Positions 2,770 through 59,610 of a DNA stretch of 64,000 nucleotides are shown in pieces. Source of the stretch: a phage; sequence record PX441839.1; one strand, 5' to 3'. Numbering within the stretch: the first letter of the stretch is position 1; each line of letters opens with the position of its first letter. Below the pieces are notes generated by a model that saw only the letters and a program-made list of their open reading frames with translations, was not told the DNA's origin and searched no databases. Both the position numbers and the translations under genes were made by a program.

Positions 2770-2775
2770 TAAGCT

Positions 2776-2796
2776 GGGGGCTTCGGCCCCCTTTTT
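2776..2796 (+). terminator. rho-independent terminator
   Basis: GGGGGC-TTCG-GCCCCC hairpin followed by TTTTT, directly after the stop at 2769. Confidence 0.7.
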
Positions 2797-2810
2797 AAAA
2801 GGAGATTTAA

Positions 2811-3461
2811 ATGGCAGTAGATCCAAACAGCAAGATTGAAGCTTGGACACCCATGATCAGAATTTCTGACATGAAATATCCAGTTTACCTGCGTGACTAT
2901 CTTGAGGAGTACAAAAACGTCAGTATCGGGTCTTTCGTGTGGGAAAGCGGGATGCGTGAGGTTGGATACTTTAAAGTCCACGATGTAGAAATCCCTATTG
3001 GGGATGTAGTCGTAGAAGGTGAACCAGCCTATAACGAGGAAGATGAACTTTGGTATAAGACTTGGATTGTCAGGGATTTCACCGAAGAGGAGATTGCTCA
3101 CAATCTCTATATGGCAAAAGAGGACGCTAAGTCTCAAGCTTATCGAATTTTTACCAATGATCAATCTTCCGGTGTTCTGGTAGATGGAGATCAGTTTAAT
3201 GTTGAGCCTCGTGAGATTACCAACTTAAGAGGTACACTCGAACTTGCCAATTTAGCAGGTGATGAGGAGAAGTTTCTTGTTCGCAAGGCAGACTTTTCAA
3301 TTCTGGAGCTTACTGCAAAAGAGACTGTTGAAAAGGTCACAAAAATAATTCTAGAGCAAGGAAAGTTACACCAAGCCCTTCTGAGCCATGTAAAAGAAAT
3401 CATGGATGCGGAAGACAGTGATTTAATCCCACCAACCCCACACACTTTCTTAGGAGAATAA
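2811..3461 (+). CDS. hypothetical protein (structural module)
   Basis: 216-aa ORF, AAAGGAG RBS about 7 nt upstream of ATG, co-oriented with structural genes. Confidence 0.6.
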   Translation: MAVDPNSKIEAWTPMIRISDMKYPVYLRDYLEEYKNVSIGSFVWESGMREVGYFKVHDVEIPIGDVVVEGEPAYNEEDELWYKTWIVRDFTEEEIAHNLYMAKEDAKSQAYRIFTNDQSSGVLVDGDQFNVEPREITNLRGTLELANLAGDEEKFLVRKADFSILELTAKETVEKVTKIILEQGKLHQALLSHVKEIMDAEDSDLIPPTPHTFLGE

Positions 3462-5833: not shown

Positions 5834-5862
5834 TTGATTTTGCAAAGCTATTGTGGTAAAAT
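5834..5862 (+). promoter_or_regulatory. putative promoter TTGATT-17-TGgTAAAAT
   Basis: Near-consensus -35 TTGATT, 17-nt spacer, TG-extended -10 TAAAAT about 20 nt upstream of the GTG start at 5883. Confidence 0.5.
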
Positions 5863-5882
5863 AACTTTCATGAGGTAATTCT

Positions 5883-12759: not shown

Positions 12760-12776
12760 GCTTCATGGTAAAATAC
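12760..12776 (+). promoter_or_regulatory. putative extended -10 promoter element (TGgTAAAAT)
   Basis: Same TGnTAAAAT motif as at 5854-5862, about 20 nt upstream of the 12794 gene. Confidence 0.35.
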
Positions 12777-16225: not shown

Positions 16226-16250
16226 TTCGTATCTGAATATGATAAAATAC
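16226..16250 (+). promoter_or_regulatory. putative extended -10 promoter element (TGaTAAAAT)
   Basis: TGnTAAAAT motif between the terminator and the 16286 gene. Confidence 0.4.
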
Positions 16251-25114: not shown

Positions 25115-27613
25115 ATGATACCTTTCCCATTATTAGGTGGAAAATCACCAACTCCACCACCGCCACTTCCAAAGGGCGTTTCTGGGTACTCAGGAACTAC
25201 CTACATAGGTGAAGATGGTGAAACTTGGTCTTGGAACAGGCAACTGGAGAGATGGATTAAAAAAGATCCGTTTCCAGTTGACGAAGGGCATCCTGAACAC
25301 TTCATGGTGGGGCCTGCAAAGATAGGCACAGATGGTTCTTTCCGATACTTCAATACTGTAACCAACGCTTGGGAAGATGTTCCTAACGGGAGCACCTTGG
25401 GGATGGTCCCTCTGACCCTGACAGATGAAGGCGTAAACATAGGGACATCGGTATTTGTAGAGTATCCCATTTATCAATCCGCTGGGTATGCCGTAGGTCT
25501 TGGAGGGTTCGCAAGACTGCTTGGGACGGAGGTACTGGGAAGACCAGATCTTATGGACCTGTACCTTATAGGAAGAAGAGGGGATTTCTTTTCACCTTCT
25601 CCTGCAAACCCTGACTCCACCAACGCAATTCTCGTAATTCGAAATGTTAAAAGGGATAGGGTGTGGAATACTTACCTGAACATGGTTGTGGAAACAAGTG
25701 ATGGGGAGATGTGGGCTTGGGGAATGAACTTCTATAATCAGTACGGCCCTTGGATAAGAAGCGGAGTAACAAGTTCCAGTCAACCACACATGAAGATAAA
25801 CCCATTCTCTAAAATATCTGATTTTCCAGTACCACCTGAGAAAATAAAAGATATCTTCCCCGGTGTAACAATGGTCATAGTTGCAGACACTGACGGGAAA
25901 TTCTGGTCCAAAGGGATTAACATTGGTCAGTTTAACGATATTGATGACCAAATTAGGACAGCCTGGGTAGAGATACCCGCAGATAGGTTCCCAGGGTTTA
26001 AAAAGTTTTATCGGAGTCTTAACGGAACAGGTGCCGCCAATGATCTTGCTTACACCAACTGCGTTTGGTATTTGACAGATACAGGGATAAGACATTTTGG
26101 AAATGTGTATGGAGTGATGGACGGTTCCCCACTTGTATCTGCAACAACTAGGGATCTCCCTGACAGTAAAGTTCACTCAGCCCCTGTAGGATTGCCTGAA
26201 AGGAATGATGAGCCTAAAATAGTGAGTTTTTCACTGGCCAGATCTTCTGACTATATCCTTATTGCTGTTTGGTATGATGACCCCGAAGAGATGTATGTTG
26301 CCTATCCTACTTCTGGACTTATTTGGGACCACGCAGATGGAGTAACGTATGGGAGGAGATTCAATAAATCCTCAGCCCCTGTAGGGAAGCATAGGAACCC
26401 CATACTGGACTTCAATAAAGAGGCCACCCTTATAACGGGGTTTGATGGAAAATTCTATGCTTCTGGGACCCCAAGTGTAAATAACGGGCTATACTCAAGA
26501 ACCAGCCCAACCACTTTTATCGACCAGAAGATGCCATCCTCTCTCGTTTATCAGGTTGAGCTATCCGACTCTGTAAACGGAAAAACTCAACTGTTGAGAA
26601 ATGATAGGCGTTCTTTAATGATAGCCGACCTTTCGGGAGGAAGCAACTACTTTGGAAATGGAACTTTCTGGAAACCAACTGCAACGATTAAGTGGCCTGA
26701 CTATCCAGACGCAATTCCAATAGTGTTCAAGAATGATGGTGTCACTATCTCGGGATCTGCTGAAAGGGTAGATACGTTTTGGGGGTGGAATGTTAGCAAC
26801 TACAACACTGTCAGCAGTACAGCCGGAGACCAGTACGGTGCTCCCAGTGGGGATGCTGTGCATGTCTCAGGGGAAGGGCACCTTACAATCTGGAAAGATG
26901 ATAGCAGTATCCTTGTTGGTGGTTACAACATAGGTGGAGTGTTTGGTGCTTTTAACCAGTGGAAGCAACCACAAGGTGCTGGAAGGTGGGTAGGCACAGT
27001 AAGAGAGTCTTTTACTGGCACATCGACAGTAAGCTGCGGAACCACTATTGCTTGGGATGGAAAAGATCATTACATATTTGGCAAAAACTACTGGGATGTT
27101 GCAAACGGACAACCAGTAATAAAGTTCAGTTCCTCTGCACCTGTAAAATGGAACAGTAAACAGGGATACCCGAACCTCCCTAATTTTATAAAATGGATTC
27201 CTGCAATTATGGGATATTCTGATGACGAGGGTTCTTTGCAACAACCCTTCTTTATGTATCGGGGTACTGACGGTCTGTTTTATGCTGCGGGTAGCAATAC
27301 AACAGGTGCCTTGGCGACAGGGACCCCACCTGAGACAAGGGATGAGCAAAGATGGACTTTTGAGGTAATGAAGGGATCTGAGGTGTTTGTTGGTAAAAAT
27401 GTTAAGGTTTACCACGGACACGGAAATACCTCTTGTTTGTTGTTCGCTTGCGAGGGAAAGGTGTACGGTGTTGGATTACCTAACAGTATGAAATGGAATG
27501 ACACCGGAACCATCCCTGACCCGTTCTTCCCTGGTTTCAACAGAAGGCTTAATGAAATCACCTACCTGATGGATTTGCCGGATGTTATCTATACCCGACC
27601 AATAGAAGAATAA
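25115..27613 (+). CDS. RCC1-like beta-propeller repeat protein (candidate distal fiber/receptor-binding protein)
   Basis: 832 aa; GAGGAG RBS; at least 5 repeats of [DG].G..[WYF]..G.N..G type (EMWAWGMNFYNQYG, KFWSKGINIGQFND, KFYASGTPSVNNGLY, LFYAAGSNTTGALATG, KVYGVGLPNSMKWND); last gene of the plus-strand operon. Confidence 0.6.
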   Translation: MIPFPLLGGKSPTPPPPLPKGVSGYSGTTYIGEDGETWSWNRQLERWIKKDPFPVDEGHPEHFMVGPAKIGTDGSFRYFNTVTNAWEDVPNGSTLGMVPLTLTDEGVNIGTSVFVEYPIYQSAGYAVGLGGFARLLGTEVLGRPDLMDLYLIGRRGDFFSPSPANPDSTNAILVIRNVKRDRVWNTYLNMVVETSDGEMWAWGMNFYNQYGPWIRSGVTSSSQPHMKINPFSKISDFPVPPEKIKDIFPGVTMVIVADTDGKFWSKGINIGQFNDIDDQIRTAWVEIPADRFPGFKKFYRSLNGTGAANDLAYTNCVWYLTDTGIRHFGNVYGVMDGSPLVSATTRDLPDSKVHSAPVGLPERNDEPKIVSFSLARSSDYILIAVWYDDPEEMYVAYPTSGLIWDHADGVTYGRRFNKSSAPVGKHRNPILDFNKEATLITGFDGKFYASGTPSVNNGLYSRTSPTTFIDQKMPSSLVYQVELSDSVNGKTQLLRNDRRSLMIADLSGGSNYFGNGTFWKPTATIKWPDYPDAIPIVFKNDGVTISGSAERVDTFWGWNVSNYNTVSSTAGDQYGAPSGDAVHVSGEGHLTIWKDDSSILVGGYNIGGVFGAFNQWKQPQGAGRWVGTVRESFTGTSTVSCGTTIAWDGKDHYIFGKNYWDVANGQPVIKFSSSAPVKWNSKQGYPNLPNFIKWIPAIMGYSDDEGSLQQPFFMYRGTDGLFYAAGSNTTGALATGTPPETRDEQRWTFEVMKGSEVFVGKNVKVYHGHGNTSCLLFACEGKVYGVGLPNSMKWNDTGTIPDPFFPGFNRRLNEITYLMDLPDVIYTRPIEE

Positions 27614-35519: not shown

Positions 35520-37538
35520 TTAAAATTTAATTTTCAGTGTTCGGGTGAAAGAACCAGACACTTTCACAGTAACTTCGTTTCGCACGGTATCCGAGAAACC
35601 AATACCTGCCAACTGACGATCAGACTTGGCAACCTTCATCTTAGCTGCAAGGTGTTCAAACACCTTACCGTGATCTTTAGCCAAATCGTTACGAAGATAC
35701 TCATTATAGAATCCACGAGTACCCTCTGGATTGGCACAGCCCTCAAGGATGAAGAACATGTGCTTGTTTCCTACTCCTTGACCATCCCAATGGTTAGGAG
35801 AGTTCATCACCATAGAAACTTTCTGGAACTGCTCTGTGGCGATACCCCACACTTCCTTGGACTGCTTGGTGCTGCCAATGGAGTCAAGAACCTTGATCCC
35901 GTGGATTCGAGAATACTCGAACGACAACACCTTGACAGAACCTTTCTCACTTACAGCCTTGTCATAAACAAACTGTGTGGAGTTTCCACGGAAATCCAGT
36001 TCAACAACAAAACCTTCACGGTCACGAAGACGTTTGTTAAAGTTTTGAACCTCTACGCGATACACACCCTCAACCATACGGTTCATGTTAGGCCATGTAA
36101 TGTTCTCAACCGGATTGAAAGCATCAGATTCTCCGTATGCGTTCATATCGACATCCAGTTCAGCACCCGTGTTACCAAAACGGTTGCCAAAGTACACACG
36201 ATTCCCGTTAGGTTCAATCAGGTACAGGTCAAGGTCATCTGGGTTAAACCACGACAGAGATACACGCAGTTCACCAGAAACACTACCACCCGCCGCCTTT
36301 ACACGTTCCTTGATAGAGTCTGTAACTTCACCATTGTATGACCAAGAGAAGTTGTTATCCCATTTCAGCATATTAGGTGCATCTGGGTATACAGGTGCCA
36401 CTAACGTCATCAGATTTGGAACATGACGGTTTTCTACCAGAACTTCCAGAGCCTCTGCTTTAGGCAGGACGTTGGAAATAAAGTCTGCAATGCTGATCTC
36501 TTCTGCCTTGGCAGGTCCAGCCTTGGGCTTCTTAGCCGTGGCTAACAGGTCATCAAATGCATTCATCGCCTTCTTAGCTGAACGATCTGCAAACAGAACG
36601 TTATTGATAGTCAGGTCTTCTGCAACAGCATATCGACGAGGCAGTGAATCCATCATGCCCAACTCTTCAACTTTTTCCTGAGCCTTCTTGATCATGGCTT
36701 CTGTAACCAGCGCTGTCGGACGCTTATAGTTTGCCGGGGCCATTACATTTTCCCAACGCTTAACCGCAGTTTCCAGATCCATGCCGTCAGAAAGATCTTG
36801 CAGCAGTGTACCTACCGCAGTGTTTCGGAACTTACCGAAAGCACCAAGTTCTTTACTCTTGGTCCATAAGAACGCATCACGGGACTCATCATTGTCGATA
36901 TTATCAAACTCACGTTTGATTGCAACAAACTTCTCCAGTGTACCTTTGGCTTCATTGCCACGATACAGGGAGTTCTGAGCAATTAGTTCTAAAGCGGTTT
37001 CAGCAGAATCTGTGGTCAGTTCTTTCAGAGAACGTTCCAGAACTTGCTTGTTTCCACGGCTATCGTTTAACTTGGTCGGGATCTTGTCACCTCGCTCAAC
37101 GTACTGGGACGGGAGAACCGCATGGAAGTGATTGAAGATGATAGTCTTCTCGTCACCAGCGCCTAAAATAACAGACCGCTCAGTACCAACCTTCGCCTGG
37201 AAGTGCAGAAACTCGTCAGTTACCTTTGCAGACTTAATAACATCCGCCATGGTATCAACCACCACCTGGTAGTAGCTTGGTACGGAGATGTCCCAAATAG
37301 TTACCATCTTGCCATCAACGAAAGTTACAACTCGACCAAGGTCACGAATAAACTGCTTGCAGCAGTTGCAATCATATTCACGTCGCTCTTTGTAGATCAG
37401 GTTGGTTCCTTCTGGGAAAGAATCCAGGTAGGTGTTCCAAACAAGATCCTTATCCAAGGCCACCTCAAACAGGCCCGTCTTAGCCATCTTGGAAAGTTGT
37501 TTCTGCATTGCTGTTACAAAACCGTGGAAGTTGCTCAT
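35520..37538 (-). CDS. large hypothetical protein (672 aa)
   Basis: Long uninterrupted ORF with RBS; N-terminal Cys cluster (YDCNCCKQF); no family recognised. Confidence 0.6.
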   Translation of the reverse strand: MSNFHGFVTAMQKQLSKMAKTGLFEVALDKDLVWNTYLDSFPEGTNLIYKERREYDCNCCKQFIRDLGRVVTFVDGKMVTIWDISVPSYYQVVVDTMADVIKSAKVTDEFLHFQAKVGTERSVILGAGDEKTIIFNHFHAVLPSQYVERGDKIPTKLNDSRGNKQVLERSLKELTTDSAETALELIAQNSLYRGNEAKGTLEKFVAIKREFDNIDNDESRDAFLWTKSKELGAFGKFRNTAVGTLLQDLSDGMDLETAVKRWENVMAPANYKRPTALVTEAMIKKAQEKVEELGMMDSLPRRYAVAEDLTINNVLFADRSAKKAMNAFDDLLATAKKPKAGPAKAEEISIADFISNVLPKAEALEVLVENRHVPNLMTLVAPVYPDAPNMLKWDNNFSWSYNGEVTDSIKERVKAAGGSVSGELRVSLSWFNPDDLDLYLIEPNGNRVYFGNRFGNTGAELDVDMNAYGESDAFNPVENITWPNMNRMVEGVYRVEVQNFNKRLRDREGFVVELDFRGNSTQFVYDKAVSEKGSVKVLSFEYSRIHGIKVLDSIGSTKQSKEVWGIATEQFQKVSMVMNSPNHWDGQGVGNKHMFFILEGCANPEGTRGFYNEYLRNDLAKDHGKVFEHLAAKMKVAKSDRQLAGIGFSDTVRNEVTVKVSGSFTRTLKIKF

Positions 37539-38102: not shown

Positions 38103-38128
38103 AAAAAACCGCCCCGAAGGGCGGTTTT
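38103..38128 (-). terminator. rho-independent terminator (end of the leader-family cassette)
   Basis: AAAAAACCGCCC-cgaa-GGGCGGTTTT; on the minus strand the hairpin is followed by a T-run directly after the stop of the 38131 gene. Confidence 0.65.
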
Positions 38129-38130
38129 AA

Positions 38131-39258
38131 TTAATCTACACTTGCACTTATTTCAGTCGCAAGTCTAAAGCTCCCTTCGACCAAGCCAGGGATCTCCTCA
38201 ACATTGTTAATTACAACATTTGACACTCTGACAGGAGGAGAACTCGGCAGGTAATCCTCCACCTTGCTTGCCACAACATCACCGTTTGTGTTTTTGACCA
38301 CCAGTTTCGAGGCAGATCTTGATGTAGTGGTTGGAGCCTTTGTGTACGTTGTAACCTGAACAGCTTTTATCTGTTGACCACCTGGTGCTCTCCAGCTTGG
38401 GGACAGGGCTACAATTGGTGCCTTCCCTACAGTTTCAGATGCCAATGAATTCACAGCAGGGGAGTTCATAGCCCTCCCCATTGTATTTGAACCCCCATAG
38501 ACGATATCTGAAATTGTTTGTGTCGTTCCTCCAGAGAAGCTACCTATGTCAGTGACACTTTGTGTTGTTCTTGTTATTTGGGGTTCACCCAAGAACTCAA
38601 AATTCCCTTCTTCATTGTATGCAGTATACATCCTTCCAAACATTAGTGGGTTAACAGTGTCGCCAAAGGCAACTCCATCGTACAAAGCACCAGAGAACCC
38701 TATGAAAAGTCCAGTCCCAACTGGCATACGCTCTGCGAAAGTGTAAGGACCAAGCGGCCCTGCCGGGGCATCTCCGTTGAGTGAGTTCCATGTCTCAAAG
38801 CTATCTTCACTGACCTTTCTTATACACACCTCCATGTAGTTATAACCAGGGGTGTACGATGATCGCATCAGGACTGTAGATGGGTCAACCCCATTGAACT
38901 GGTTTGTAAGTATCCCCGTCCGGAGGAATCCTCTATTAAAGGGGAAGAATACCCGATACCCGAAGGTAAAGGTGGCATTCACTGGAGCTTCAAGAAGTAT
39001 CTTCCTGACATCTATGGTGAACCCACCATAATCTCCAGTGGAGCTTGTAAACCTGATTGCGAACACGGGGGATGATCCTCCACTCTGGGAGGCGGTCATA
39101 AGGGACCCCGGCAAGGTAGGTGATTTTATCATAGATATTGACACACCGAGCTTTTTTGACAGGTACTCCTCAAGACCCTTTTCATAATCGTTGCTGGAAT
39201 TATATGCGAATGGTGTCATATCCAAAAAATCTGTAAATCCGAGTATTGCCATAATCAC
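38131..39258 (-). CDS. paralog family protein, copy 3 (375 aa)
   Basis: Shares N-terminus (MIMAILGF) and internal motifs (YMEVCIRKVS; AYNEEGNFEFLG) with the 39449 and 40752 genes. Confidence 0.6.
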   Translation of the reverse strand: MIMAILGFTDFLDMTPFAYNSSNDYEKGLEEYLSKKLGVSISMIKSPTLPGSLMTASQSGGSSPVFAIRFTSSTGDYGGFTIDVRKILLEAPVNATFTFGYRVFFPFNRGFLRTGILTNQFNGVDPSTVLMRSSYTPGYNYMEVCIRKVSEDSFETWNSLNGDAPAGPLGPYTFAERMPVGTGLFIGFSGALYDGVAFGDTVNPLMFGRMYTAYNEEGNFEFLGEPQITRTTQSVTDIGSFSGGTTQTISDIVYGGSNTMGRAMNSPAVNSLASETVGKAPIVALSPSWRAPGGQQIKAVQVTTYTKAPTTTSRSASKLVVKNTNGDVVASKVEDYLPSSPPVRVSNVVINNVEEIPGLVEGSFRLATEISASVD

Positions 39259-39452
39259 TCCTTAATTGGTGATGTTAAGACTTCTGTTACCACGAGTAGC
39301 GTGTTCTGTGCCAACTCAGGTTGAAGGAGAACCTCTGTGACCACAATGCCGACATTGGCAGAAAATTGTGGTGTAATAAGAACCTCTGTTGTCACTAAAT
39401 AGACGTTGGAAAACATTGCCTGTTCCCCAACGGCGGTCATGATTTCAATCAT
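39255..39452 (-). CDS. leader microprotein with 3 x 17-aa tandem repeats (VVTEVL type)
   Basis: MIEIMTAVG leader, then three 17-aa units with core V(V/T)TEVL; stop overlaps the start of the 38131 gene (ATGA). Confidence 0.55.
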   Translation of the reverse strand: MIEIMTAVGEQAMFSNVYLVTTEVLITPQFSANVGIVVTEVLLQPELAQNTLLVVTEVLTSPIKE

Positions 39453-40525
39453 ACATCCACAACCCTCTCGCTGGAAGCAACGAACGAAAGACCTGCCAAC
39501 TGGTCCCTTCCTGAAAGTGGAATAGTCACCTTGCTAACCCCACGGGCGTAATCTTGACTATCGTTCTTTATGCTTTTCGATTTCAAAAGCTCACCATCAG
39601 AACTTACTATCTGAGATGTGATATCCACAGACTTGCCTTGTACACTTGATCTTCCAACTAGTGTAGAGCTAACCGCAGCAATCTTCACAGAAGGGTCAAG
39701 AGTTGAAAGATTAGCTTTTGCCACTGCTGGGTTTACTAGGGTTGTTGGACCCAGCAATCCTCCCAAGTGATTATAGTTTAATCTGTTGGTAAGTGTTGCC
39801 TCCCCGTTTGGGTTATCACCTCCAGATACCAGTGTGTTTGGTAATGTTCTTACCGAGCAAGTTCCCAAACGCTCCTCAAGACCTTCCTTGTTGAATGCCC
39901 AATATTGGTCCATAAATGTTACCTCCACTTGAGTGGTTGGTAACTTATTGGTGGTAAGAGGGGACCAATTATACCCAGTGCCTATTACCATTTGCTGGGG
40001 AAGAGAGTTTACAGAATCGTTTTGCAAGACAGTGCCGTCAACCCAAGCCCTTAGTCGATATGAGGTTGCAGAAACTTTACTTACTTCAAGCTCCACGTAC
40101 ACTGATCTTTCTGATCCCGAGTACCTCTGCATAGGGTAATCCAAAACTGCTGCCAAAGATCCAGAGGTAAACCCTCCCAACCTTAGGTCTGCGGTCATAT
40201 ATTCTTGGGGGATGATTACTCGGCTTCCGACCGTAAGGGTATCGCCAACATCCACAATCCAAGGCCCAATCGACGTCACAGTTGCTGCGTATGATGTCAT
40301 CGTCGGAAAGAATGACACCTTATTTTGACCAACGGTTCCGTACATGGTGCCGGATGAAATGTAGTAATCGAATCTACCTCCGTTTGAACCCACAGGGGTT
40401 TTTGGAATACAAGCGGCATTTAATGTTTGTAGCAGCAGGAGCGCATCGTTACCTTGTATTTGCCCCTTGTTAGGGAATTCCCTGAGGGAACCGAACCCAT
40501 TGATGTGAAAAATCATACAACTCAC
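39449..40525 (-). CDS. paralog family protein, copy 2 (358 aa)
   Basis: MSCMIFHINGF; DVGDTLTVG; YVELEVSKVS; RAWVDG; FMDQYWAFNKEGLEERLG; homologous to the 40752 gene. Confidence 0.6.
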   Translation of the reverse strand: MSCMIFHINGFGSLREFPNKGQIQGNDALLLLQTLNAACIPKTPVGSNGGRFDYYISSGTMYGTVGQNKVSFFPTMTSYAATVTSIGPWIVDVGDTLTVGSRVIIPQEYMTADLRLGGFTSGSLAAVLDYPMQRYSGSERSVYVELEVSKVSATSYRLRAWVDGTVLQNDSVNSLPQQMVIGTGYNWSPLTTNKLPTTQVEVTFMDQYWAFNKEGLEERLGTCSVRTLPNTLVSGGDNPNGEATLTNRLNYNHLGGLLGPTTLVNPAVAKANLSTLDPSVKIAAVSSTLVGRSSVQGKSVDITSQIVSSDGELLKSKSIKNDSQDYARGVSKVTIPLSGRDQLAGLSFVASSERVVDV

Positions 40526-40713
40526 CCCACAGTATAAAGATATTCTTGAACAAAAGCCGCTGAGTTAATCTCTGACGGGACATAATACAGATATTCTTGA
40601 ACAAAAGCAACAGTATCTGTATTTGTTGGGGAGTAGTACAGGTACTCCTGAACAAAAGTCACAATCTCAGGATTAATGGCTCCACTTCCAGAGGCTGTCA
40701 TCATCTCCAACAT
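40522..40713 (-). CDS. leader microprotein with 3 x 17-aa tandem repeats (FVQEYLY type)
   Basis: MLEMMTASG leader, then (V/A)(T/A)FVQEYLY x3 at 51-nt period; GAGGTAA RBS; stop overlaps the 39449 gene start. Confidence 0.55.
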   Translation of the reverse strand: MLEMMTASGSGAINPEIVTFVQEYLYYSPTNTDTVAFVQEYLYYVPSEINSAAFVQEYLYTVG

Positions 40714-40719
40714 AGCATT

Positions 40720-40745
40720 ACCTCAATAAGACGCCCCGAAGGGCG
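40720..40745 (-). terminator. intra-cassette hairpin (possible attenuator)
   Basis: ACGCCC-cgaa-GGGCGT hairpin between the 40752 gene stop and the 40713 start. Confidence 0.4.
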
Positions 40746-40751
40746 TGTGAC

Positions 40752-41804
40752 TTAAACATTCGGTTCTTTTTCCCTTGAAGATACGAAACTGTAGTTTGTA
40801 AGTTCAGACATTGGTTTATCACTCACATCCAAAACTGTTTCACAGAAACCTCCACGATAATCAGGGGTTACAGATTCCTTTGTGGTTGAGGATACTACCT
40901 TTCCAGTGTGATCCAGAATCTGACTGGTCACCGGAGCAGGAACTCCCGTTACCGACGACTTACCTACAGTTGTCATCTTAAAAGCCTTAATCCTTAGGTT
41001 AGGGTTCGGGCTTGGCATATTCACCTTTTGTACCATAGGGTCGCGAAGGGTTATCGGGTCCTGAGACCCTTTCGAGAGATCCCAATTAACCCTTGCGGTC
41101 CCCCAAGTGGACCCACCAGGGTTTTCACTTCCTGCCGTTAATGTTCTTGGGACTTGGGTCACGGTTGCTCTCCCAATTCTCTCATCCCTTCCCTCAGTAT
41201 TAAATGCAAAATAGATATCTTGGAAATAAAAACTCCCCGCTGGGTTGGTGTTGGATTTCCAAAGAACACTTGTTCCAATAGCACCATAGTTGAACAGTTC
41301 CGACCCTTGACCCGCTTTCCTCAAAAGACCGTTTACCCACATCTCGTAAGTGTATGGGTAATCAGGATGATCTGTTTTTCTAACTACCATCTCCACATAC
41401 GGATTAGCTGTCCTATCTGTGTGGTCACAAACCATGGTTAATGACGACAGATACCCATTTGAAAATCCACCAACCGCAGGTAATGAATTTGCGTGAGTAG
41501 ATGTCATACCCAATCCACAACCAACCGTCAAAGCGTCCCCAACATCAATAATTATGGATGGGAGGTGAATATTCAAACATCCGATCCCTGATGGACCCAA
41601 TACGTTCATTGACAACCTGTTGGTCCCAGGTAAAGATAGATTAGGGCTAGAACTCTGGTATGCATAATTTGCAAAAGTTGCACCTTGCTTTGGGCTTTGT
41701 GGGTGCCCGTACCGCAGAGAAGTTAAAACGGTTTGGATATCGTTAGTGCTTACCAAGTTAGTTAATGGCTCCCACACAGAAAACCCCTGAATTCCGATAA
41801 TCAT
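40752..41804 (-). CDS. paralog family protein, copy 1 (350 aa)
   Basis: MIIGIQGF; DVGDALTVG; YVEMVVRKT; MWVNG; FQDIYFAFNTEGRDERIG. Confidence 0.6.
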   Translation of the reverse strand: MIIGIQGFSVWEPLTNLVSTNDIQTVLTSLRYGHPQSPKQGATFANYAYQSSSPNLSLPGTNRLSMNVLGPSGIGCLNIHLPSIIIDVGDALTVGCGLGMTSTHANSLPAVGGFSNGYLSSLTMVCDHTDRTANPYVEMVVRKTDHPDYPYTYEMWVNGLLRKAGQGSELFNYGAIGTSVLWKSNTNPAGSFYFQDIYFAFNTEGRDERIGRATVTQVPRTLTAGSENPGGSTWGTARVNWDLSKGSQDPITLRDPMVQKVNMPSPNPNLRIKAFKMTTVGKSSVTGVPAPVTSQILDHTGKVVSSTTKESVTPDYRGGFCETVLDVSDKPMSELTNYSFVSSREKEPNV

Positions 41805-42001
41805 ACACTTTCCTCTATAACGTATAAATATTCCGGCATTAAACCTATCGTACTTACATCGGGAATGATGGAGTACAAGTATTCCGGCATAATGCCTATA
41901 AGATTTACCTCTGGGGCCAGAATATAAAGATATTCCGGCATAAGACCTATGACCTCAACTGGGGCCTTTCTTACCCCTGATGCCGTCATCAATTCTATCA
42001 T
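41801..42001 (-). CDS. leader microprotein with 3 x 17-aa tandem repeats (MPEYLY type)
   Basis: MIELMTASG leader, then IG(L/I)MPEYLY x3; stop overlaps the 40752 gene start (ATGA). Confidence 0.55.
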   Translation of the reverse strand: MIELMTASGVRKAPVEVIGLMPEYLYILAPEVNLIGIMPEYLYSIIPDVSTIGLMPEYLYVIEESV

Positions 42002-42013
42002 ACATACCCCCGA

Positions 42014-42850
42014 TTACACTTTTCTTGCATTGCTGGGAAATTCTCGTTTCTCCGTATCACCCCATATGATCCTTACAGCAGATGCACCTGGGGCATTTGA
42101 AGATCCGTGTCCAGACCCACCTCCGAAGTTTCCTCCTCGTCTACCACTCTGGTCTTCGCCTCCAGACCCACCTCTTGCACTTGTGGGGATTTGACCACCC
42201 CTGCCCCCTGCACCATTGACACCTACTCCGTAAATACCCACTCCACCACCGCCACCTGAGTTTTCACCAGATGACCCTGAGAAGTAATATCCTACAGATC
42301 CTCCACCCCCACCACCTTCCCCGCTACCTCCAGCGGAGTAATTTGTAGAAGGGGGGTATGCATTACCTCCGTCCCCTCCCTTTCCTATATACCCTGCTGC
42401 ACCTCCAGCGCCAGCACATCTTTTCCTGTCATTGGCGGAGGAGTTACTCCCTCCAGCACCACCTTTGTTTATTACCGCACCACCCATATCAGGATACGAT
42501 CCTGTGTAAGGTTCCGGTCCAGAACCAAACCCTGCGACAACCAGCGGAGTTCCATCCCGAAAAAGTCCAACAACAGTTGTCCCATCATCGCTGCCTCTTG
42601 TGTGGACCTGTAGAGTCTCCCCAGGTAGCACAGGTATGTGGTTTCTCCATACTAGGTCTCCCCCAGCACCACCTCTACGTGGGAGAGGATCTGTTTGAGG
42701 CATCCCTCCTTGACCGACACACACTACGCTAATATCTTCCACATTGTTTGGAACAACCCACAACTTAGGTGCAGTAGTGAGGGAAGTGTACTCCACATTC
42801 CCTAGTTTAACTGGAGCTTTAGTTTTTACCGTCGCTGTCATTAATTCTAA
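42014..42850 (-). CDS. Gly-rich protein with the shared N-terminal leader
   Basis: Start at internal ATG (MLELMTATVKTKAPV) with AAGAGGAAA RBS; C-terminal 60% is poly-Gly-rich (GGAGGSNSS...GGSGEGGGGGGSVGYYFSGSSGENSGGGGGVGIYG...). Confidence 0.55.
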   Translation of the reverse strand, partial: LELMTATVKTKAPVKLGNVEYTSLTTAPKLWVVPNNVEDISVVCVGQGGMPQTDPLPRRGGAGGDLVWRNHIPVLPGETLQVHTRGSDDGTTVVGLFRDGTPLVVAGFGSGPEPYTGSYPDMGGAVINKGGAGGSNSSANDRKRCAGAGGAAGYIGKGGDGGNAYPPSTNYSAGGSGEGGGGGGSVGYYFSGSSGENSGGGGGVGIYGVGVNGAGGRGGQIPTSARGGSGGEDQSGRRGGNFGGGSGHGSSNAPGASAVRIIWGDTEKREFPSNARKV

Positions 42851-43269
42851 CATAACTTTCCTCTTTAAGATACTAATTCTAGAACGGGTCTCCATCCAAG
42901 ATCGGTATTAGCTGTACCGTTAATCTTCCCACCGAAGATATTCCCAGTAGACTAGGAGATACCTCTGCGTGGAACATGTTATTTTGGTACATTGTGAATT
43001 CAGTCGATAGTGAGTACCTGCCGTAAATTGGAGGGTTAAAGTCCGTAGTTGGCAAAGTCAGAAGTGTCATAAGTACCTCTCTAAAATTCAATGCAATTGG
43101 ATCGCTGTTTATAAAACCATAAAGTCTTCCTTCCAAATTACCACAATTTCAAGCATTATTTACCCTCTGTGTTGCATGGAAGGATCTTTATTGATCCTCG
43201 ACGTACCGCAGGATTCTTATCACTCCTTGCACACTGTTGTCGGGTACTGGTGAGTATAGCCTAGGTATC

Positions 43270-43806
43270 TCAAGTATATATAAACTCCCCTGTAAAGTTT
43301 ACATCCGTGTATATTCCACGAAACGGAGATACAATCTTCATCAACCCGCTTACAGGGTCTAAGTACACAAAATTAGTAACCGTATATCCTAAGTAACTGG
43401 AGTAAGAGTTACTGGTGTGGTTATTCCTTGAAACCGAAATATATTGATTATAAGTAACAGTTACTGTTTTCGTTATAAGGACGGTAGAATTAGTCCGCAG
43501 CAGGGCTTGGTACGTACCATACGAAGGTGAGGCATGTTGCGCTACCAGATACCACCAAGAGTCGTAAGTTACCGAAGTTCCGTATGGGCTTCCCCACATC
43601 CTCCCGTCTGTTGAGTACACTTTCCCGACATCATACGCCATAGTTTGGGCCGGAGCAGTGACCTCGGGTATCCAAGACCCTGCCGCCTGATTGTCAGGGA
43701 TACGGAGTATTCCCCTTTGTTGGTCTAGCCATTTTAGAAACACAGGATAGGTCATGGGGCCCTCGATTGGGGCGGATGCCCCTGATACCGACAGTAACTC
43801 AAGCAT
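43270..43806 (-). CDS. hypothetical protein with the shared N-terminal leader
   Basis: Start at internal ATG (MLELLSVSGASAP) with GGAGAG RBS; the longer track ORF would run through the upstream terminator. Confidence 0.5.
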   Translation of the reverse strand: MLELLSVSGASAPIEGPMTYPVFLKWLDQQRGILRIPDNQAAGSWIPEVTAPAQTMAYDVGKVYSTDGRMWGSPYGTSVTYDSWWYLVAQHASPSYGTYQALLRTNSTVLITKTVTVTYNQYISVSRNNHTSNSYSSYLGYTVTNFVYLDPVSGLMKIVSPFRGIYTDVNFTGEFIYT

Positions 43807-43824
43807 AAATCTCTCCAATATTTG

Positions 43825-43847
43825 AAAGGGGCCGAAGCCCCTTTTTT
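43825..43847. terminator. bidirectional terminator hairpin
   Basis: AAA-GGGGC-cgaa-GCCCC-TTTTTT between the DNA polymerase exon 2 and the leader cassette. Confidence 0.6.
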
Positions 43848-43862
43848 CTTTGTACAGAGGGT

Positions 43863-43895
43863 ATTTTAACACGGACGCTTTGAATTATCCACAAG
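43863..43895 (-). promoter_or_regulatory. putative extended -10 promoter (TGtTAAAAT) for the leader cassette
   Basis: Minus-strand TGTTAAAAT just upstream of the terminator hairpin and the 43806 gene; -35 is weak. Confidence 0.3.
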
Positions 43896-43928: not shown

Positions 43929-44228
43929 TCAGTGACATTGCCCCCAATTAAGTCCTGTCAGATACTCACCTGTGATATGTACAGGTGCCTTCATCATCTT
44001 AGCTGCTTGTTCAACGCAACGAACAACCATTTCACCGACAGGGCAGTAGATGATAGTGAATATTCCATTCTCATCGGGGTCGCACTTAAACTTACCTTCC
44101 TTGACACAATGACCATCCAGAACCATACGCTTCTTGAGGCAATCCTCAACAAAAGCTTTTGCTTCGACTTCATTGTCAAACTTCCATTCCTTCTTGAACT
44201 TATTTGGAACTTCAAGCTGGTATTCATC
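43929..44228 (-). CDS. DNA polymerase family A, exon 2 (C-terminal end)
   Basis: Begins at DEYQLEVP (second half of the Pol A motif C, HDE...E.P) and ends ...TGLNWGQCH, like the Pol I C-terminus; the leading Met of the track ORF is probably intron-derived. Confidence 0.6.
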   Translation of the reverse strand, partial: DEYQLEVPNKFKKEWKFDNEVEAKAFVEDCLKKRMVLDGHCVKEGKFKCDPDENGIFTIIYCPVGEMVVRCVEQAAKMMKAPVHITGEYLTGLNWGQCH

Positions 44229-44998
44229 CAAAGTTTAGCAGGTTCGTTAATCCTGCCCACACCATTACGTGTTGCCATACGGTTTCCCGTAGGATCGGAC
44301 TATATCACCACCCTTTTCAGGGTGCTCCCCATTTCGACGCCACTTGGTCGCCTACGCCTCTCGGCTAGTCTCTGAACGTTAAGACCACGTATACTTCTCG
44401 GAAATATGCTTCCACTGCCGACGCTGCTTAATGGCTCGTACTGTTGCATAGGGGAATCCCATGTCGCGTACCTCTGCCTGGCTCATTCCGCTTTCAAGAA
44501 GCTGGCAAATGGTCATCACTTCGTCTTCTGTGAGGGCACTATTAGCATTGTTGATACCTTCCGCGCTGCGACAGTTGTGGCGATAGGCGTTCTCTATGTT
44601 TTTGCCTCTCGTAACCCACTGTAGGTTGTCTTTGTGGTTATTCCTTTTATCGGGCCACTTGTGATCAACCTCTGGAAGATTGTTCGGATTGGGAACAAAA
44701 CATTCTGCCACCAAAACATGGACCGCCTTTGTCGTCGCCTTTTTGTTAAGGTAAAGACTGACAATTGCATACCCTCTTCCATTATCAACATGCTTCATAG
44801 GTTTACCTCGACGACCTATAATGGTCCCGTCCTCGTAAACTTTATATCCGAAATAGTCTTTGTACTCCACGTAGTCCTCTTCGCTGCTGATTAACATAGC
44901 TGCACTTTAGTTTATTATTAACCCAGTGTCAACCTTAGCCTTCCAGCAATTAAAGGAGTTTTCGATGTAGGTTGCCCTACAAAGCCACAATGTTACTT
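44229..44998 (-). mobile_element. group I-like intron in the DNA polymerase gene, carrying an HNH homing endonuclease ORF
   Basis: About 770 nt separate the exon 1 end (...VRRIIYYH) from exon 2 (DEYQLEVP), splitting motif C. It contains an HNH ORF and an 80-nt core conserved with the second intron. Boundaries approximate. Confidence 0.55.
44379..44897 (-). CDS. HNH homing endonuclease
   Basis: 172 aa; HVLVAECFVPNPNNLPEVDHKWPDKRNNHKDNLQWVTRGKN is an HNH-type motif; lies between the polymerase fragments. Confidence 0.75.
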   Translation of the reverse strand: MLISSEEDYVEYKDYFGYKVYEDGTIIGRRGKPMKHVDNGRGYAIVSLYLNKKATTKAVHVLVAECFVPNPNNLPEVDHKWPDKRNNHKDNLQWVTRGKNIENAYRHNCRSAEGINNANSALTEDEVMTICQLLESGMSQAEVRDMGFPYATVRAIKQRRQWKHISEKYTWS

Positions 44999-47326
44999 AT
45001 GGTAATAGATAATACGACGAACTCCCTCGTCATACCATCCCTTCTTGACCAGTTGCCAGTGAAGCAAGATTCCAACCAGGTCAAATAGTGCTGCACCACC
45101 ATTCTGCTGAAATGCGTTCAACAGGGAGTGCTTTGAACGAGTCCAAATCTTACGCCCATCCAAACCATAGATGAATCTTTTCCCTGTCGCTTCCCAGAAT
45201 TTCTCCAGCGCTTCTTTACGACCTTTTAATCCGATGTTGCTATCCCAGAATGCGTTGATTACATCCTGTGCCTTATCTACTGTGATTCCAAGCATGGATG
45301 CAATCTTGGGTGCCTGAGCGCCGTACATGATTCCATACGTGATACTCTTTCCCTCGCCACGAGAAACCTTCTTCCCCGCTGCCTTTGTGTATGCCTCTGC
45401 GTTTCGGGTGTGGGCGTCCCCCGACTCCATGATTTCAAGGTAAGCGCCACCATCGAACTCATACGCACCCCAAGCCGCAATCATACCTTCCAGGTTAGAA
45501 CCATCAATACCCACTTGGTACTTACCCTTTGGTGCTCGCCAAAGGGAACGCATCTCATAACCAAACAACACCTTCGGATCAGGCTTAGGCATGTTTGCGC
45601 AGATCGTGTGCTTACGACGCCCAGTGTTGGTAATCCCTGAGAACCTTGCTGGTAATCGACCATCAATCTTCAAGCGTGGGTGGTTAAGAAGTCCAGTATC
45701 AACCTTATCCTCTTTCAGTGGATCAAGGACAGATCGTCGGTTACGTGCAGATAACCACTGAACAATGCCTTTAGCCATCGCACCATCCACCTTTTCCAAG
45801 TTTGGGCACAATCCCTGCTGGTCTTTCAACTGAGGGCTTGTTGGCAATGCACGGGCCTTCTTACGGAAGAATTTGAACATCTTCTCCTTGTCTGCCCACT
45901 GCTTAGGGGTAATGTGCAAGTTCTTAAGGATAAGATCACGATATTCTGTCTGATCTAGTTGCTCAATATACTCCCGCACAATTGCATCAACTTCACCATC
46001 CGGACGTTGCTTTTTAAACTGGTCCTTTGTTGCATCCTTTGTACGCCAAATTGTTGGAATCCAACCCGCATCTCGGATGAGGAACTTCTTAACATCATCC
46101 TGGTTACCGATACGCATCGGAATCATTATATCTGGCATGGTCTTATTCTTCAAGTCCGCCAAAGCCCGTGCCATATCCTCTGGAGGTAGTGGCTCCAGTG
46201 TGGATTGTTTTTCGTTCTGACTACGAATGAACTGAGGCATTTGATCCTCATCTTCCACCCCGTGGTCATTACAGTATTTAATAGCCGCAGCCGTAAGTGA
46301 ACCATCTGCCTTAAATGCTTTAGCCGGAGGCCCCTTGAAATCAAGGGCTTCCCAATTAATATTGTATCCTAACTTCTCCAGCCATTTCCAACCTGTGCCG
46401 GACAATGTCCCGTCACCCTTGAAAGGTTTGGATGGGAAAGTTGGTTGTGCGGATTTAGCCATCTCTTTCTTCGGAAGCTGAGGCTCAACCTCTTCCTCAA
46501 TCTTCTTCATGAAGGCATCAACCGTATCGCGGAGTTTCAGCGCCGCCTCTATGTCAAAATCAACACCTTGGATTTCTTGCTCAATCATCAGGTAATCGGT
46601 AAGCATACCTCGACGAAGAGAGTCTTTCCAGTTGATCATTTTATATTTTGTTGGGACACGCTCATCTTTAAACATGAAGCGTTTATCATCTGGGTACGCA
46701 TCGCAGGTGATTTCCTTCATAAGGGCGTCCCACACCTTTTCGTTGATGATAACGTCCTCAATGATACGGTCACAATACTTCCACAACGGGAGTCCACGCC
46801 AATCATCAATGGCGACTTTCAGGTTGGCTACTCTCATACCCCATGCTTCCAGACCATGAGGGCCAACAGGTTTCATCTTTCCTGTGACAGGGTTTTTAAC
46901 CATTTCTGGGCAACCCTTCGGCAATGGGCGGTCAGGGTAGAGTGTACGAGACATAGACAAGGAGTCAAACAGGTTAACCTGTTTTCCATTGATCGTTCCC
47001 ATGCACTTAGGATCGGCAAACATATCGTATTGTGTACCGAACAGCTTCTTGAACAGACGTAAGTCATATCCAAACAAGTTGTGAATAACAATGCTACTAG
47101 GGACTTCTGTGAACCATCTATTAAGGTCAGAGAAGTTCATTACATGCAGATTGAATCCCTTCGCATTAACGAAGTTCAAAGCCTCTTGATAACCCTCTCG
47201 CGCTGGGTCCATGAAGAGATACCAGTTATCCTTTTTGTACTCCTTGAAGAGGATGCAGTGAGCATGTAAGTTCTCCTCGTCAAGTAAACCAGATGCTTCC
47301 GCATCACCTACCCATAAACCTTTCAT
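44999..47326 (-). CDS. DNA polymerase family A, exon 1 (3-5 exonuclease and polymerase domains through the start of motif C)
   Basis: Motif A-like DGSNLEGM (D.S..E), motif B-like KSITYGIMYGA (K...YG..YG), N-terminal exonuclease-like region; ORF ends abruptly at ...VRRIIYYH-K-stop inside motif C. Confidence 0.8.
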
Positions 47327-59117: not shown

Positions 59118-59610
59118 TCTCCTTTAATACATACACGGTAACATCCCAATGAGATAGATTTTTATCAATCATCTTAGAGATAATTTTCCAATCACCTCCG
59201 GCAAGACCTGCACCAAGCTTAGGTAAACCCACCCGAAGTTCATTTTTTGGTACGTCCAATAAACGAACCTTTCCGTGAAGAGATGCGTTCATCATTTTTA
59301 AAGCCTTGTCTAAGGCATCATAATCAAGGTCCATCTTCCCCTGTTTACGTAACCACCAACCAAACTGACCGTAGAGGTTGTACACAAGGGTTGCGGATTC
59401 GAAGCAAAAAGCCTCTGTTATAGTCCCTAGCTTACCTTGATCACCCTTCTTTGTGTTTTGATCAACGTAGTAAGCCTCTGGAAATGATTTTGCAATCAAG
59501 GGAGCAATCCCAGATTTCATAGTGTTGAAACAATTGCAGCAGTGAGCGATAACATCCACCTCTTTGTCTTTAGCTGCCTGGATAAGATCACCAACCTTGT
59601 ATTTTATCAT
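59104..59610 (-). CDS. macro domain protein (ADP-ribose binding/hydrolase-like)
   Basis: GDL...VDVIAHCCNCFNTMKSGIAPLI and GLPKLGAGLAGGDW match the two Gly-rich loops of macro domains; overlaps the RNA ligase gene start. Confidence 0.6.
   Translation of the reverse strand: MIKYKVGDLIQAAKDKEVDVIAHCCNCFNTMKSGIAPLIAKSFPEAYYVDQNTKKGDQGKLGTITEAFCFESATLVYNLYGQFGWWLRKQGKMDLDYDALDKALKMMNASLHGKVRLLDVPKNELRVGLPKLGAGLAGGDWKIISKMIDKNLSHWDVTVYVLKESEIG

Follow-up and report, generated by a model that had tools for sequence, protein, structure and literature searches.

Why do five genes in one small block of a phage genome begin with the same short peptide? The block is 5.7 kb long and lies on the minus strand of phage sequence record PX441839.1, of which a stretch of 64 000 nucleotides (the window) was analysed; it is flanked by the C-terminal piece of DNA polymerase A (43929-44231) and a 672-amino-acid DUF8224 gene (35520-37538). 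The five N-termini share M-[LI]-E-[LIM]-[LM]-(T/S), referred to here as the leader. With a probability of roughly 0.55, the evidence points to the leader as a portable N-terminal virion-docking peptide for exchangeable accessory lectin or adhesin modules. Most likely it attaches its cargo to the virus particle directly or through small three-repeat adaptors.

The block comprises nine genes and a decayed sixth leader gene. An earlier note on this DNA had described five consecutive leader genes. Instead, three small leader genes were found to alternate with three leaderless genes of 350-373 amino acids, and this pairing of a small repeat protein with a large protein had been overlooked. Two leaders head globular bodies (g1, 178 amino acids, and the glycine-rich g2, 279 amino acids). 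The other three belong to pairs, in which a leader protein of 63-66 amino acids with three 17-residue repeats is followed by a leaderless concanavalin-A-like protein of 350-373 amino acids. The genes are as follows.

43270..43806, minus strand: g1, 178 amino acids, leader MLELLSVSG and a globular domain of unknown fold (phrog_6409).
42879..43156, minus strand: decayed sixth leader gene MLEIVVIWKEDFMVL* between g1 and g2, with the leader part at 43156-43109.
42014..42853, minus strand: g2, 279 amino acids, leader MLELMTATV and a glycine-rich domain (phrog_4474).
41801..42001, minus strand: g3, adaptor of 66 amino acids, leader MIELMTASG and three IGLMPEYLY repeats with a 17-residue period.
40752..41804, minus strand: g4, 350 amino acids, leaderless and paralogous to g6 and g8; g4 start and g3 stop overlap (ATGA).
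40522..40713, minus strand: g5, adaptor of 63 amino acids, leader MLEMMTASG and three (V/A)(T/A)FVQEYLY repeats.
39449..40516, minus strand: g6, 355 amino acids, leaderless, paralog of g4 and g8 (P0002); its stop overlaps the g7 start (ATGA).
39255..39452, minus strand: g7, adaptor of 65 amino acids, leader MIEIMTAVG and three (V/T)VTEVL repeats.
38131..39252, minus strand: g8, 373 amino acids, leaderless, phrog_28811; a concanavalin-A-like lectin/glucanase jelly roll with a C-terminal beta-sandwich.

Four of the leader starts given earlier (43806 MLELLSVSG, 42001 MIELMTASG, 40713 MLEMMTASG and 39452 MIEIMTAVG) were recovered as placed, while MLELMTATV starts at 42853 and not at 42850, three bases away. 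A Shine-Dalgarno-like sequence lies upstream of each of the five. In the decayed gene, MLEIVVIWKEDFMVL* is out of frame with an open reading frame (ORF) of 85 amino acids (43136-42879) that keeps a LamG C-terminal segment, and residues 151-166 of a 221-amino-acid leader-LamG protein of Salmonella phage SSBI34 matched this region with 75 % identity (E 2e-5, tblastn). None of the eight proteins g1-g8 had a significant match in Pfam or NCBIfam. PADLOC likewise matched none of the eight, for which reason a defence or anti-defence reading was dropped. A PDB sequence search returned nothing for the large-family profile or g2 and only three insignificant matches for g1 (E 0.15-0.81).

The leader is confined to the block within the window and is conserved as a peptide. 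Candidate starts were defined as those preceded by a Shine-Dalgarno sequence and opening ORFs of at least 50 amino acids in six frames of the entire window; the pattern x-x-E-[LIMVF]-[LIMVF] fitted 5 of 188, all five within the 5.7 kb block. In pairwise comparison of the nine leader codons, identical non-methionine residues were mostly encoded by differing codons (five of five between g3 and g5), and the 20 nucleotides upstream of the leader genes were unrelated (3-9 of 20 identical). This indicates that selection acts on the leader peptide, in agreement with the protein-level conservation claimed earlier. A search of viral contigs with the leader DNA pattern ATGHTNGARHTNATGACNGCN returned 120 single-match loci, nearly all of them due to chance, with no repeat proteins and no clusters. 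Forty-three leaders were collected, with a consensus of about nine residues, M-[LIFQ]-E-[MLI]-[ML]-[TLM]-[AVG]-[GST]-G; the glutamate at position 3 is invariant, position 4 is M, L or I in 40 of the 43 and position 5 is M or L in 39. The skeleton of the leader, x-phi-E-phi-phi, is the same as that of the adaptor repeats. Proteolytic processing, one of the roles suggested before, found no support, as no protease-type site follows the leader: a prohead-protease site (L/I-x-E and a small residue) was not found at the leader end, the sole conserved glutamate being residue 3 and followed by M, L or I. The initiator methionine is probably retained.

At least six unrelated cargo types stand under the leader: phrog_6409, PF21722 glycine-rich proteins, PF13385 LamG proteins, the CB7_55 family, a 240-amino-acid protein of one related locus (L139) and the repeat adaptors. 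That the leader heads unrelated proteins fits the shared targeting or anchoring signal proposed in the earlier note. The homologs of g1 in jumbo Erwinia phage Ea35-70, Ea357_279 and Ea357_278, begin with MLELLMYAG and MLEMLMGSK, and in that phage a glycine-rich protein followed by the two g1 homologs is encoded beside the DNA polymerase gene. The g2 protein is the ortholog of PVP-SE1 gp018, which begins with MFEMMLATS. Many g2 homologs carry PF21722, as do the Ea35-70 and SSBI34 neighbours, with g2 itself under the Pfam threshold, and the motif stands at the start of 14 of 120 metagenomic g2 homologs. MQE, MNE and MLE/MIE variants occur on homologous cargo; CB7_55 (MQEMM), KaOmega gp63, PhiEaH1 gp082 (MLESM) and gp085 (MLEMM), and a 258-amino-acid protein of locus L138 (MIEML) were linked by blastp. 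The two PhiEaH1 proteins are annotated as virion structural, begin with MLESMNMSGG (gp082) and MLEMMMGGSG (gp085), and sit in an array of paralogs that instead have an FN3-like N-terminal domain. Arrays of six to eight paralogous 'virion structural' genes were seen in PhiEaH1 (L136, 639-6585) and CR5 (L135, 514-10095), with a common central domain headed by the FN3-like domain or, in gp082 and gp085, by the MLE-type leader.

By tblastn and megablast, the window was placed in the Vequintavirinae, among the rV5-like myophages, with SSBI34 as its closest relative, followed by Certrevirus (CR9, PBES02, phiTE and CB7) and Seunavirus (PVP-SE1). The set of leader genes varies among these phages. The cassette content differs from that of SSBI34, which has two glycine-rich proteins, one LamG protein and two pairs, although the neighbouring polymerase C-terminal pieces are 98 % identical. 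Certrevirus-like genomes and contigs have one or two adaptor-large pairs in this position, in some cases together with additional cargo genes that bear a leader, and an ortholog of g5 (P0005) was found at this locus in Certrevirus-like contigs. The PVP-SE1 locus has only the g2 ortholog, gp018, and no leader genes were found at this locus in the rV5-type phage APECc02. The block had been described as an inserted element; it is better described as a conserved variable locus of the Vequintavirinae. An unannotated gene for a glycine-rich leader protein of 280 amino acids (MLELMTATVQT, 80 % identical to g2) lies in an annotation gap of SSBI34 (L001, 3671-4513). In a Certrevirus-like contig (L131, 12005-12190), a gene called as 216 amino acids and cut by the contig end begins with MNEIMIIGKSS about 10 kb downstream of the cassette; judged by this start, its product may be another leader-type protein.

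The adaptors and large proteins follow a pairing rule. An ORF encoding the leader and three repeats directly precedes 13 of the 13 large-family genes examined, often with overlapping stop and start, and one of these preceding ORFs had been missed by the gene finder. Each adaptor has its three 17-residue repeats with an invariant glutamate at about positions 23, 40 and 57. Among 15 small proteins, the glutamate-to-glutamate spacing is exactly 17 residues in all 15, and repeat identity is 0.71 within a small protein vs 0.34 between proteins. The three repeats therefore co-evolve as equivalent sites. The large proteins g4, g6 and g8 are paralogs in which a concanavalin-A-like jelly-roll sandwich was found together with a C-terminal beta domain; the invariant residues of the family (g8 numbering) are Y139, E141, K146, Y209, N213 and E219, and the family is rare (16 clusters among 1.84 billion representatives). 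Viral structural neighbours of the cargo folds in BFVD included a virion structural protein of cyanophage S-PM2, Mtd-N, and tail fibre and minor tail proteins. The adhesin-like modules suspected earlier are supported at the level of fold, which is lectin/adhesin-like. In an AlphaFold2 (AF2) model of g7 joined to g8 by a linker, strands were formed only at repeat 3 of g7 (predicted local distance difference test, pLDDT, ~79) and at the N-terminus of g8 (~75). The leader remains disordered in this model, and so would be free for another partner.

Leader-type proteins are present in the virions of relatives. Virion incorporation, another earlier suggestion, is supported indirectly by CB7_55 and CB7_251 (PMC7344957) and by pTE203 (PMC11972413), which were detected by mass spectrometry (MS). 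Among the CB7 structural proteins confirmed by tandem MS (MS/MS), CB7_55 (MQEMMIVTS...; four peptides and 24 % coverage), encoded just upstream of the polymerase gene, is the one whose gene lies outside the structural region (PMC7344957). CB7_251 was confirmed in CB7 virions by the same means (PMC7344957). Among the phiTE virion proteins detected by MS and without assigned density in cryo-electron microscopy (cryo-EM), pTE203 was the most abundant (exponentially modified protein abundance index, emPAI, 533; PMC11972413). Both phiTE_203 (MNELLLIG..., LamG-like) and CB7_251 are orthologs of a 216-amino-acid LamG-like protein of SSBI34 (MQEMLTVA), whose gene is the only leader-type gene found outside the cassette in the SSBI34 genome, the 62-85 kb tail module left out. 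CB7_251 (L147, 801-1445) is annotated from 891, and an ORF identical to phiTE_203 begins 90 nucleotides upstream with MNELLLIG; the deposited start is thus probably too short and hides the leader. In phiTE (L146), phiTE_203 (2501-3145) is immediately preceded by a pseudo-ToxI non-coding RNA (2392-2450), which the annotation marks as a site of recombination with the ToxIN plasmid of the host.

The block may be expressed together with structural genes. The following elements were identified.

43863..43891, minus strand: promoter-like element TGGATA-17-TG-n-TAAAAT, with the extended -10 TGTTAAAATA at 43862-43871.
5854-5863 (plus strand), 12766-12775 (plus strand), 16240-16249 (plus strand), 43862-43871 (minus strand) and 59600-59609 (minus strand): copies of TGNTAAAATA.
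43825..43844, minus strand: UUCG-loop hairpin GGGGCUUCGGCCCC (-13.7 kcal/mol, z -3.2) between the -10 element and the g1 ribosome-binding site.
40731..40746, minus strand: UUCG hairpin with a weak U tract inside the block, in the space from g4 to g5 (-11.4 kcal/mol, z -2.7).
38103..38128, minus strand: canonical intrinsic terminator closing the block, ACCGCCC-UUCG-GGGCGGU followed by U6 (-17.1 kcal/mol, z -3.9).

A transcription unit of its own had been proposed for the block, in line with which the promoter-like element (43891-43863) and the terminator (38103-38128) were found. There are five occurrences of TGNTAAAATA in the window vs 0.71 expected. Three copies lie 20-45 nucleotides upstream of tail or baseplate genes, two of these directly after UUCG-loop terminator hairpins, and no obvious gene start follows the copy at 59.6 kb. 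The same element was found 48-66 nucleotides upstream of the cassette in eight related loci (SSBI34, CR9, L130, L132 and L138-L141), and TGnTAAAATA also precedes the SSBI34 ortholog of pTE203. TGNTAAAATA is a candidate structural-gene, perhaps late, promoter of this phage group. Its presence before the cassette, before the SSBI34 ortholog of pTE203 and before three tail/baseplate genes suggests joint expression of the cassette and structural genes. The two hairpins named earlier as the bounds of the block are present (43825-43844 and 38103-38128), but the upstream one sits downstream of the -10 element and not upstream of the promoter. Its position is kept in related loci, mostly with a T-run, and the hairpin GGGGCTTCGGCCCC lies between the -10 element and the ribosome-binding site in L001 (SSBI34), L003, L130, L132, L138, L139 and L141. 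The hairpin at 43825-43844 may end DNA polymerase transcripts, or may be a promoter-proximal attenuator or 5' stem-loop. Possible roles of the GGGGCTTCGGCCCC hairpin are attenuation, a target for antitermination and stabilisation of the mRNA as a 5' stem-loop, and it might hold expression low.

The docking mechanism that these data suggest can be set out as follows. The block would be the form taken here by a rapidly changing accessory locus that closely follows the DNA polymerase gene in Vequintavirinae-type myophages, and its products would be exchangeable, flexibly attached, lectin/adhesin-like minor virion proteins. One shared docking peptide of about 7-9 residues at the N-terminus would bring every module to the particle. 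It is carried by g1, by the glycine-rich g2 and by the decayed LamG gene themselves, and the leaderless g4, g6 and g8 would each be coupled to it by a co-translated adaptor of 63-66 amino acids (g3, g5 and g7). The adaptor repeats are predicted to be short beta-strands around the invariant glutamate, specific for the cognate large protein, and at least one repeat was modelled beside a strand from the large protein's N-terminus. One adaptor probably holds three copies of the large protein, the lectin-like folds of which may bind glycans. The docking site would be flexible and low in copy number, possibly in the fibre network, and these two properties would account for the detection of pTE203 by MS but not in the maps. 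A more general reading was considered tentative, in which M-x-E-phi-phi would be a general, portable beta-strand docking code of large myophages that are only distantly related, among them the Vequintavirinae, the jumbo phages of Erwinia and many uncultured phages that encode PF21722 proteins. The N-terminal copy would plug the cargo into one conserved site and the diverged internal copies, three per adaptor, would each capture one cognate lectin subunit.

Several points weigh against the docking-peptide interpretation. The block lies on the opposite strand to the tail module, among replication genes, and expression could be blocked by the hairpin that follows the -10 element ahead of the g1 ribosome-binding site. 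No docking partner emerged from a Pfam search, of limited sensitivity and without a structural search, for T4 gp9/gp10-like domains in ten tail, baseplate and fibre proteins of the window. The contact in the 1:1 model was read from secondary structure and confidence alone, without coordinates. The AF2 model of one adaptor with three large proteins reached a pLDDT of 59.9 and a predicted template modelling score (pTM) of 0.35, with the adaptor at ~25 despite strands on all three repeats. The MS-supported families have MQE/MNE variants and are absent from this cassette, the confirmation of CB7_251 consisted of one peptide (PMC7344957) and the abundance of pTE203 is modest. A weak further point is that RAY gp282-284, orthologs of the Ea35-70 leader genes, are not on the list of proteins detected in RAY/Deimos-Minion crude lysate.

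Capsid targeting of the T4 type was judged unlikely; in this rival reading the leader would guide the proteins to the scaffold core of the prohead, so that they are enclosed in the head and leave it with the ejected DNA, like T4 IPI/II/III and Alt. T-even internal proteins are likewise described as diverse products of a variable locus that have a short N-terminal peptide in common (PMC3012670), Vequintavirinae have a gene for a T4-like prohead core protease (CB7_5; PMC7344957), and the genes of the block lie among early/middle-type genes; the MS signal without assignable cryo-EM density seen for pTE203 would fit internal proteins as well. However, the leader does not end in an L/I-x-E cleavage site and small residue, having its sole glutamate at residue 3. 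The concanavalin-A-like/LamG lectin and glycine-rich cargo is of a kind typical among surface proteins rather than small charged internal ones, there was no match to an anti-defence family, and T4 has no counterpart of the three-repeat adaptors. Prohead-protease processing of the repeats, in which phi-x-E is present, was rejected, since the residue after the glutamate is always bulky and hydrophobic and the motif is a strand in the models. It is distinctly unlikely that the leader is an intracellular recognition tag, concerned with a phage or host chaperone, assembly timing or stability, on cargo that acts in the cell or is loosely particle-bound. The failure to find a docking partner, the location among replication genes, the modest MS support, which comes from relatives only, and the RAY orthologs missing from the lysate list would all suit such a tag. 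Against this, leader-type proteins occur in two independent virion proteomes, the cargo folds are of carbohydrate-binding type, and in PhiEaH1 the same cargo domain is found alternatively under the FN3-like N-terminal domain in the 'virion structural' array. This alternation suggests that the N-terminus is an attachment module.

Plain paralogy, in which the shared N-terminus would be left over from gene duplication and have no function itself, can appeal to the paralogous relationships among g3, g5 and g7 and among g4, g6 and g8, but is very improbable: the leader is kept while its codons and the remainder of the proteins diverge beyond recognition, it heads unrelated folds, and it is conserved across phage lineages including jumbo phages and metagenomic PF21722 proteins. 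Hardly credible is the idea that the small proteins are precursors of ribosomally synthesised and post-translationally modified peptides (RiPPs), with a leader and three cores modified or cleaved by the adjoining large protein. Conserved leader, tandem core-like repeats and a tightly coupled downstream gene resemble multi-core RiPP precursors superficially, but the same leader stands on globular proteins of 170-280 amino acids, the downstream protein has a lectin-type jelly-roll fold and matched no maturase family in Pfam, NCBIfam or PDB, and the block has neither protease nor transporter. The RiPP reading was rejected because the leader is not confined to small precursors and no enzyme family was matched.

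The surroundings of the block are those of replication genes, the tail, baseplate and fibre genes being on the plus strand of the window up to ~28 kb. The neighbouring DUF8224 gene is conserved, and the polymerase gene on the other side is interrupted.

43929-47326, minus strand: DNA polymerase A gene, split into a main part (44993-47326) and a C-terminal piece of 100 amino acids (43929-44231).
44379-44897, minus strand: HNH-type endonuclease gene of 172 amino acids interrupting DNA polymerase A.

The same split of DNA polymerase A, with other homing endonucleases, was seen in relatives. On the plus strand, a 912-amino-acid protein (31-2769) has seven collagen-repeat stretches and a weak fibritin-C-like match, and an 832-amino-acid protein of the fibre region (25115-27613) has an RCC1-like repeat segment.

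A docking function of the leader, if real, would explain how these phages carry and quickly swap minor lectin-like proteins such as pTE203, which have their genes outside the structural operons and cannot be seen in cryo-EM maps. It would also point to hidden determinants of host range or adsorption in rV5-like therapeutic phages and in jumbo phages, and a peptide of about nine residues might serve for display or loading of proteins on large myophages. For a monomeric lectin, the three-repeat adaptor suggests a compact route to multivalency. Should the tentative docking code be true, a 65-residue protein would turn one docking site into a trivalent glycan-binding head, which would be a new way to build and swap accessory host-recognition modules, and the code would supply a tag with which foreign proteins could be loaded onto phage particles.

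The earlier note had recognised no described phage system with this architecture. Short N-terminal peptides on unrelated virion proteins are, however, known (PMC6872550, PMC3012670). Established examples are the 7- and 11-residue N-terminal peptides of the K1E/K1-5/SP6 tailspikes, which bind the gp37 adaptor (PMC6872550), and docking peptides (e.g. MALxxLV) have been modelled or validated in KP32/KP34-type Klebsiella phages (PMC6872550; PMC13352976). The leader resembles these in being a very short, mostly hydrophobic N-terminal peptide on otherwise unrelated proteins; such a conserved peptide was found in 43 leaders on at least six cargo types. Presence on the virion was seen for the leader-type relatives CB7_55, CB7_251 and pTE203. 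Module exchange is a further likeness, as is a separate small adaptor that may mediate attachment. Unlike in those systems, the cargo consists of monomer-type lectin folds and a glycine-rich domain and not of beta-helix tailspikes or depolymerases, and the genes lie beside the DNA polymerase C-terminal piece and DUF8224 and not in the tail-fibre region or tail module. Pfam revealed no branching domain of the T4 gp10 type in ten tail-module proteins. The leader is marked by an invariant glutamate and is spread over two very different phage groups, and the adaptor has three internal, putatively cargo-binding repeats.

The T4 capsid targeting sequence, an N-terminal peptide of ~10 residues on IPI, IPII, IPIII and Alt, is the sole conserved feature of a diverse and fast-changing set of proteins packaged in the virion (PMC3012670). 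As in T4, the leader was found on diverse proteins at a variable locus outside the main structural operons. However, the T4 sequence has a prohead-protease site at its end and is cleaved off, whereas the leader has no such site, and the T4 cargo comprises anti-restriction or enzymatic internal proteins whereas the cargo here is lectin-like. Concanavalin-A-like and LamG domains are also known on phage virions; in contrast to these, g4, g6 and g8 reach no Pfam model and are separate small proteins, not domains of long fibres. Literature searches found no published description of this leader or of three-repeat adaptors. The system would work like tailspike docking peptides and T4 targeting but differs in receptor domain, gene location, cargo type and protease site.

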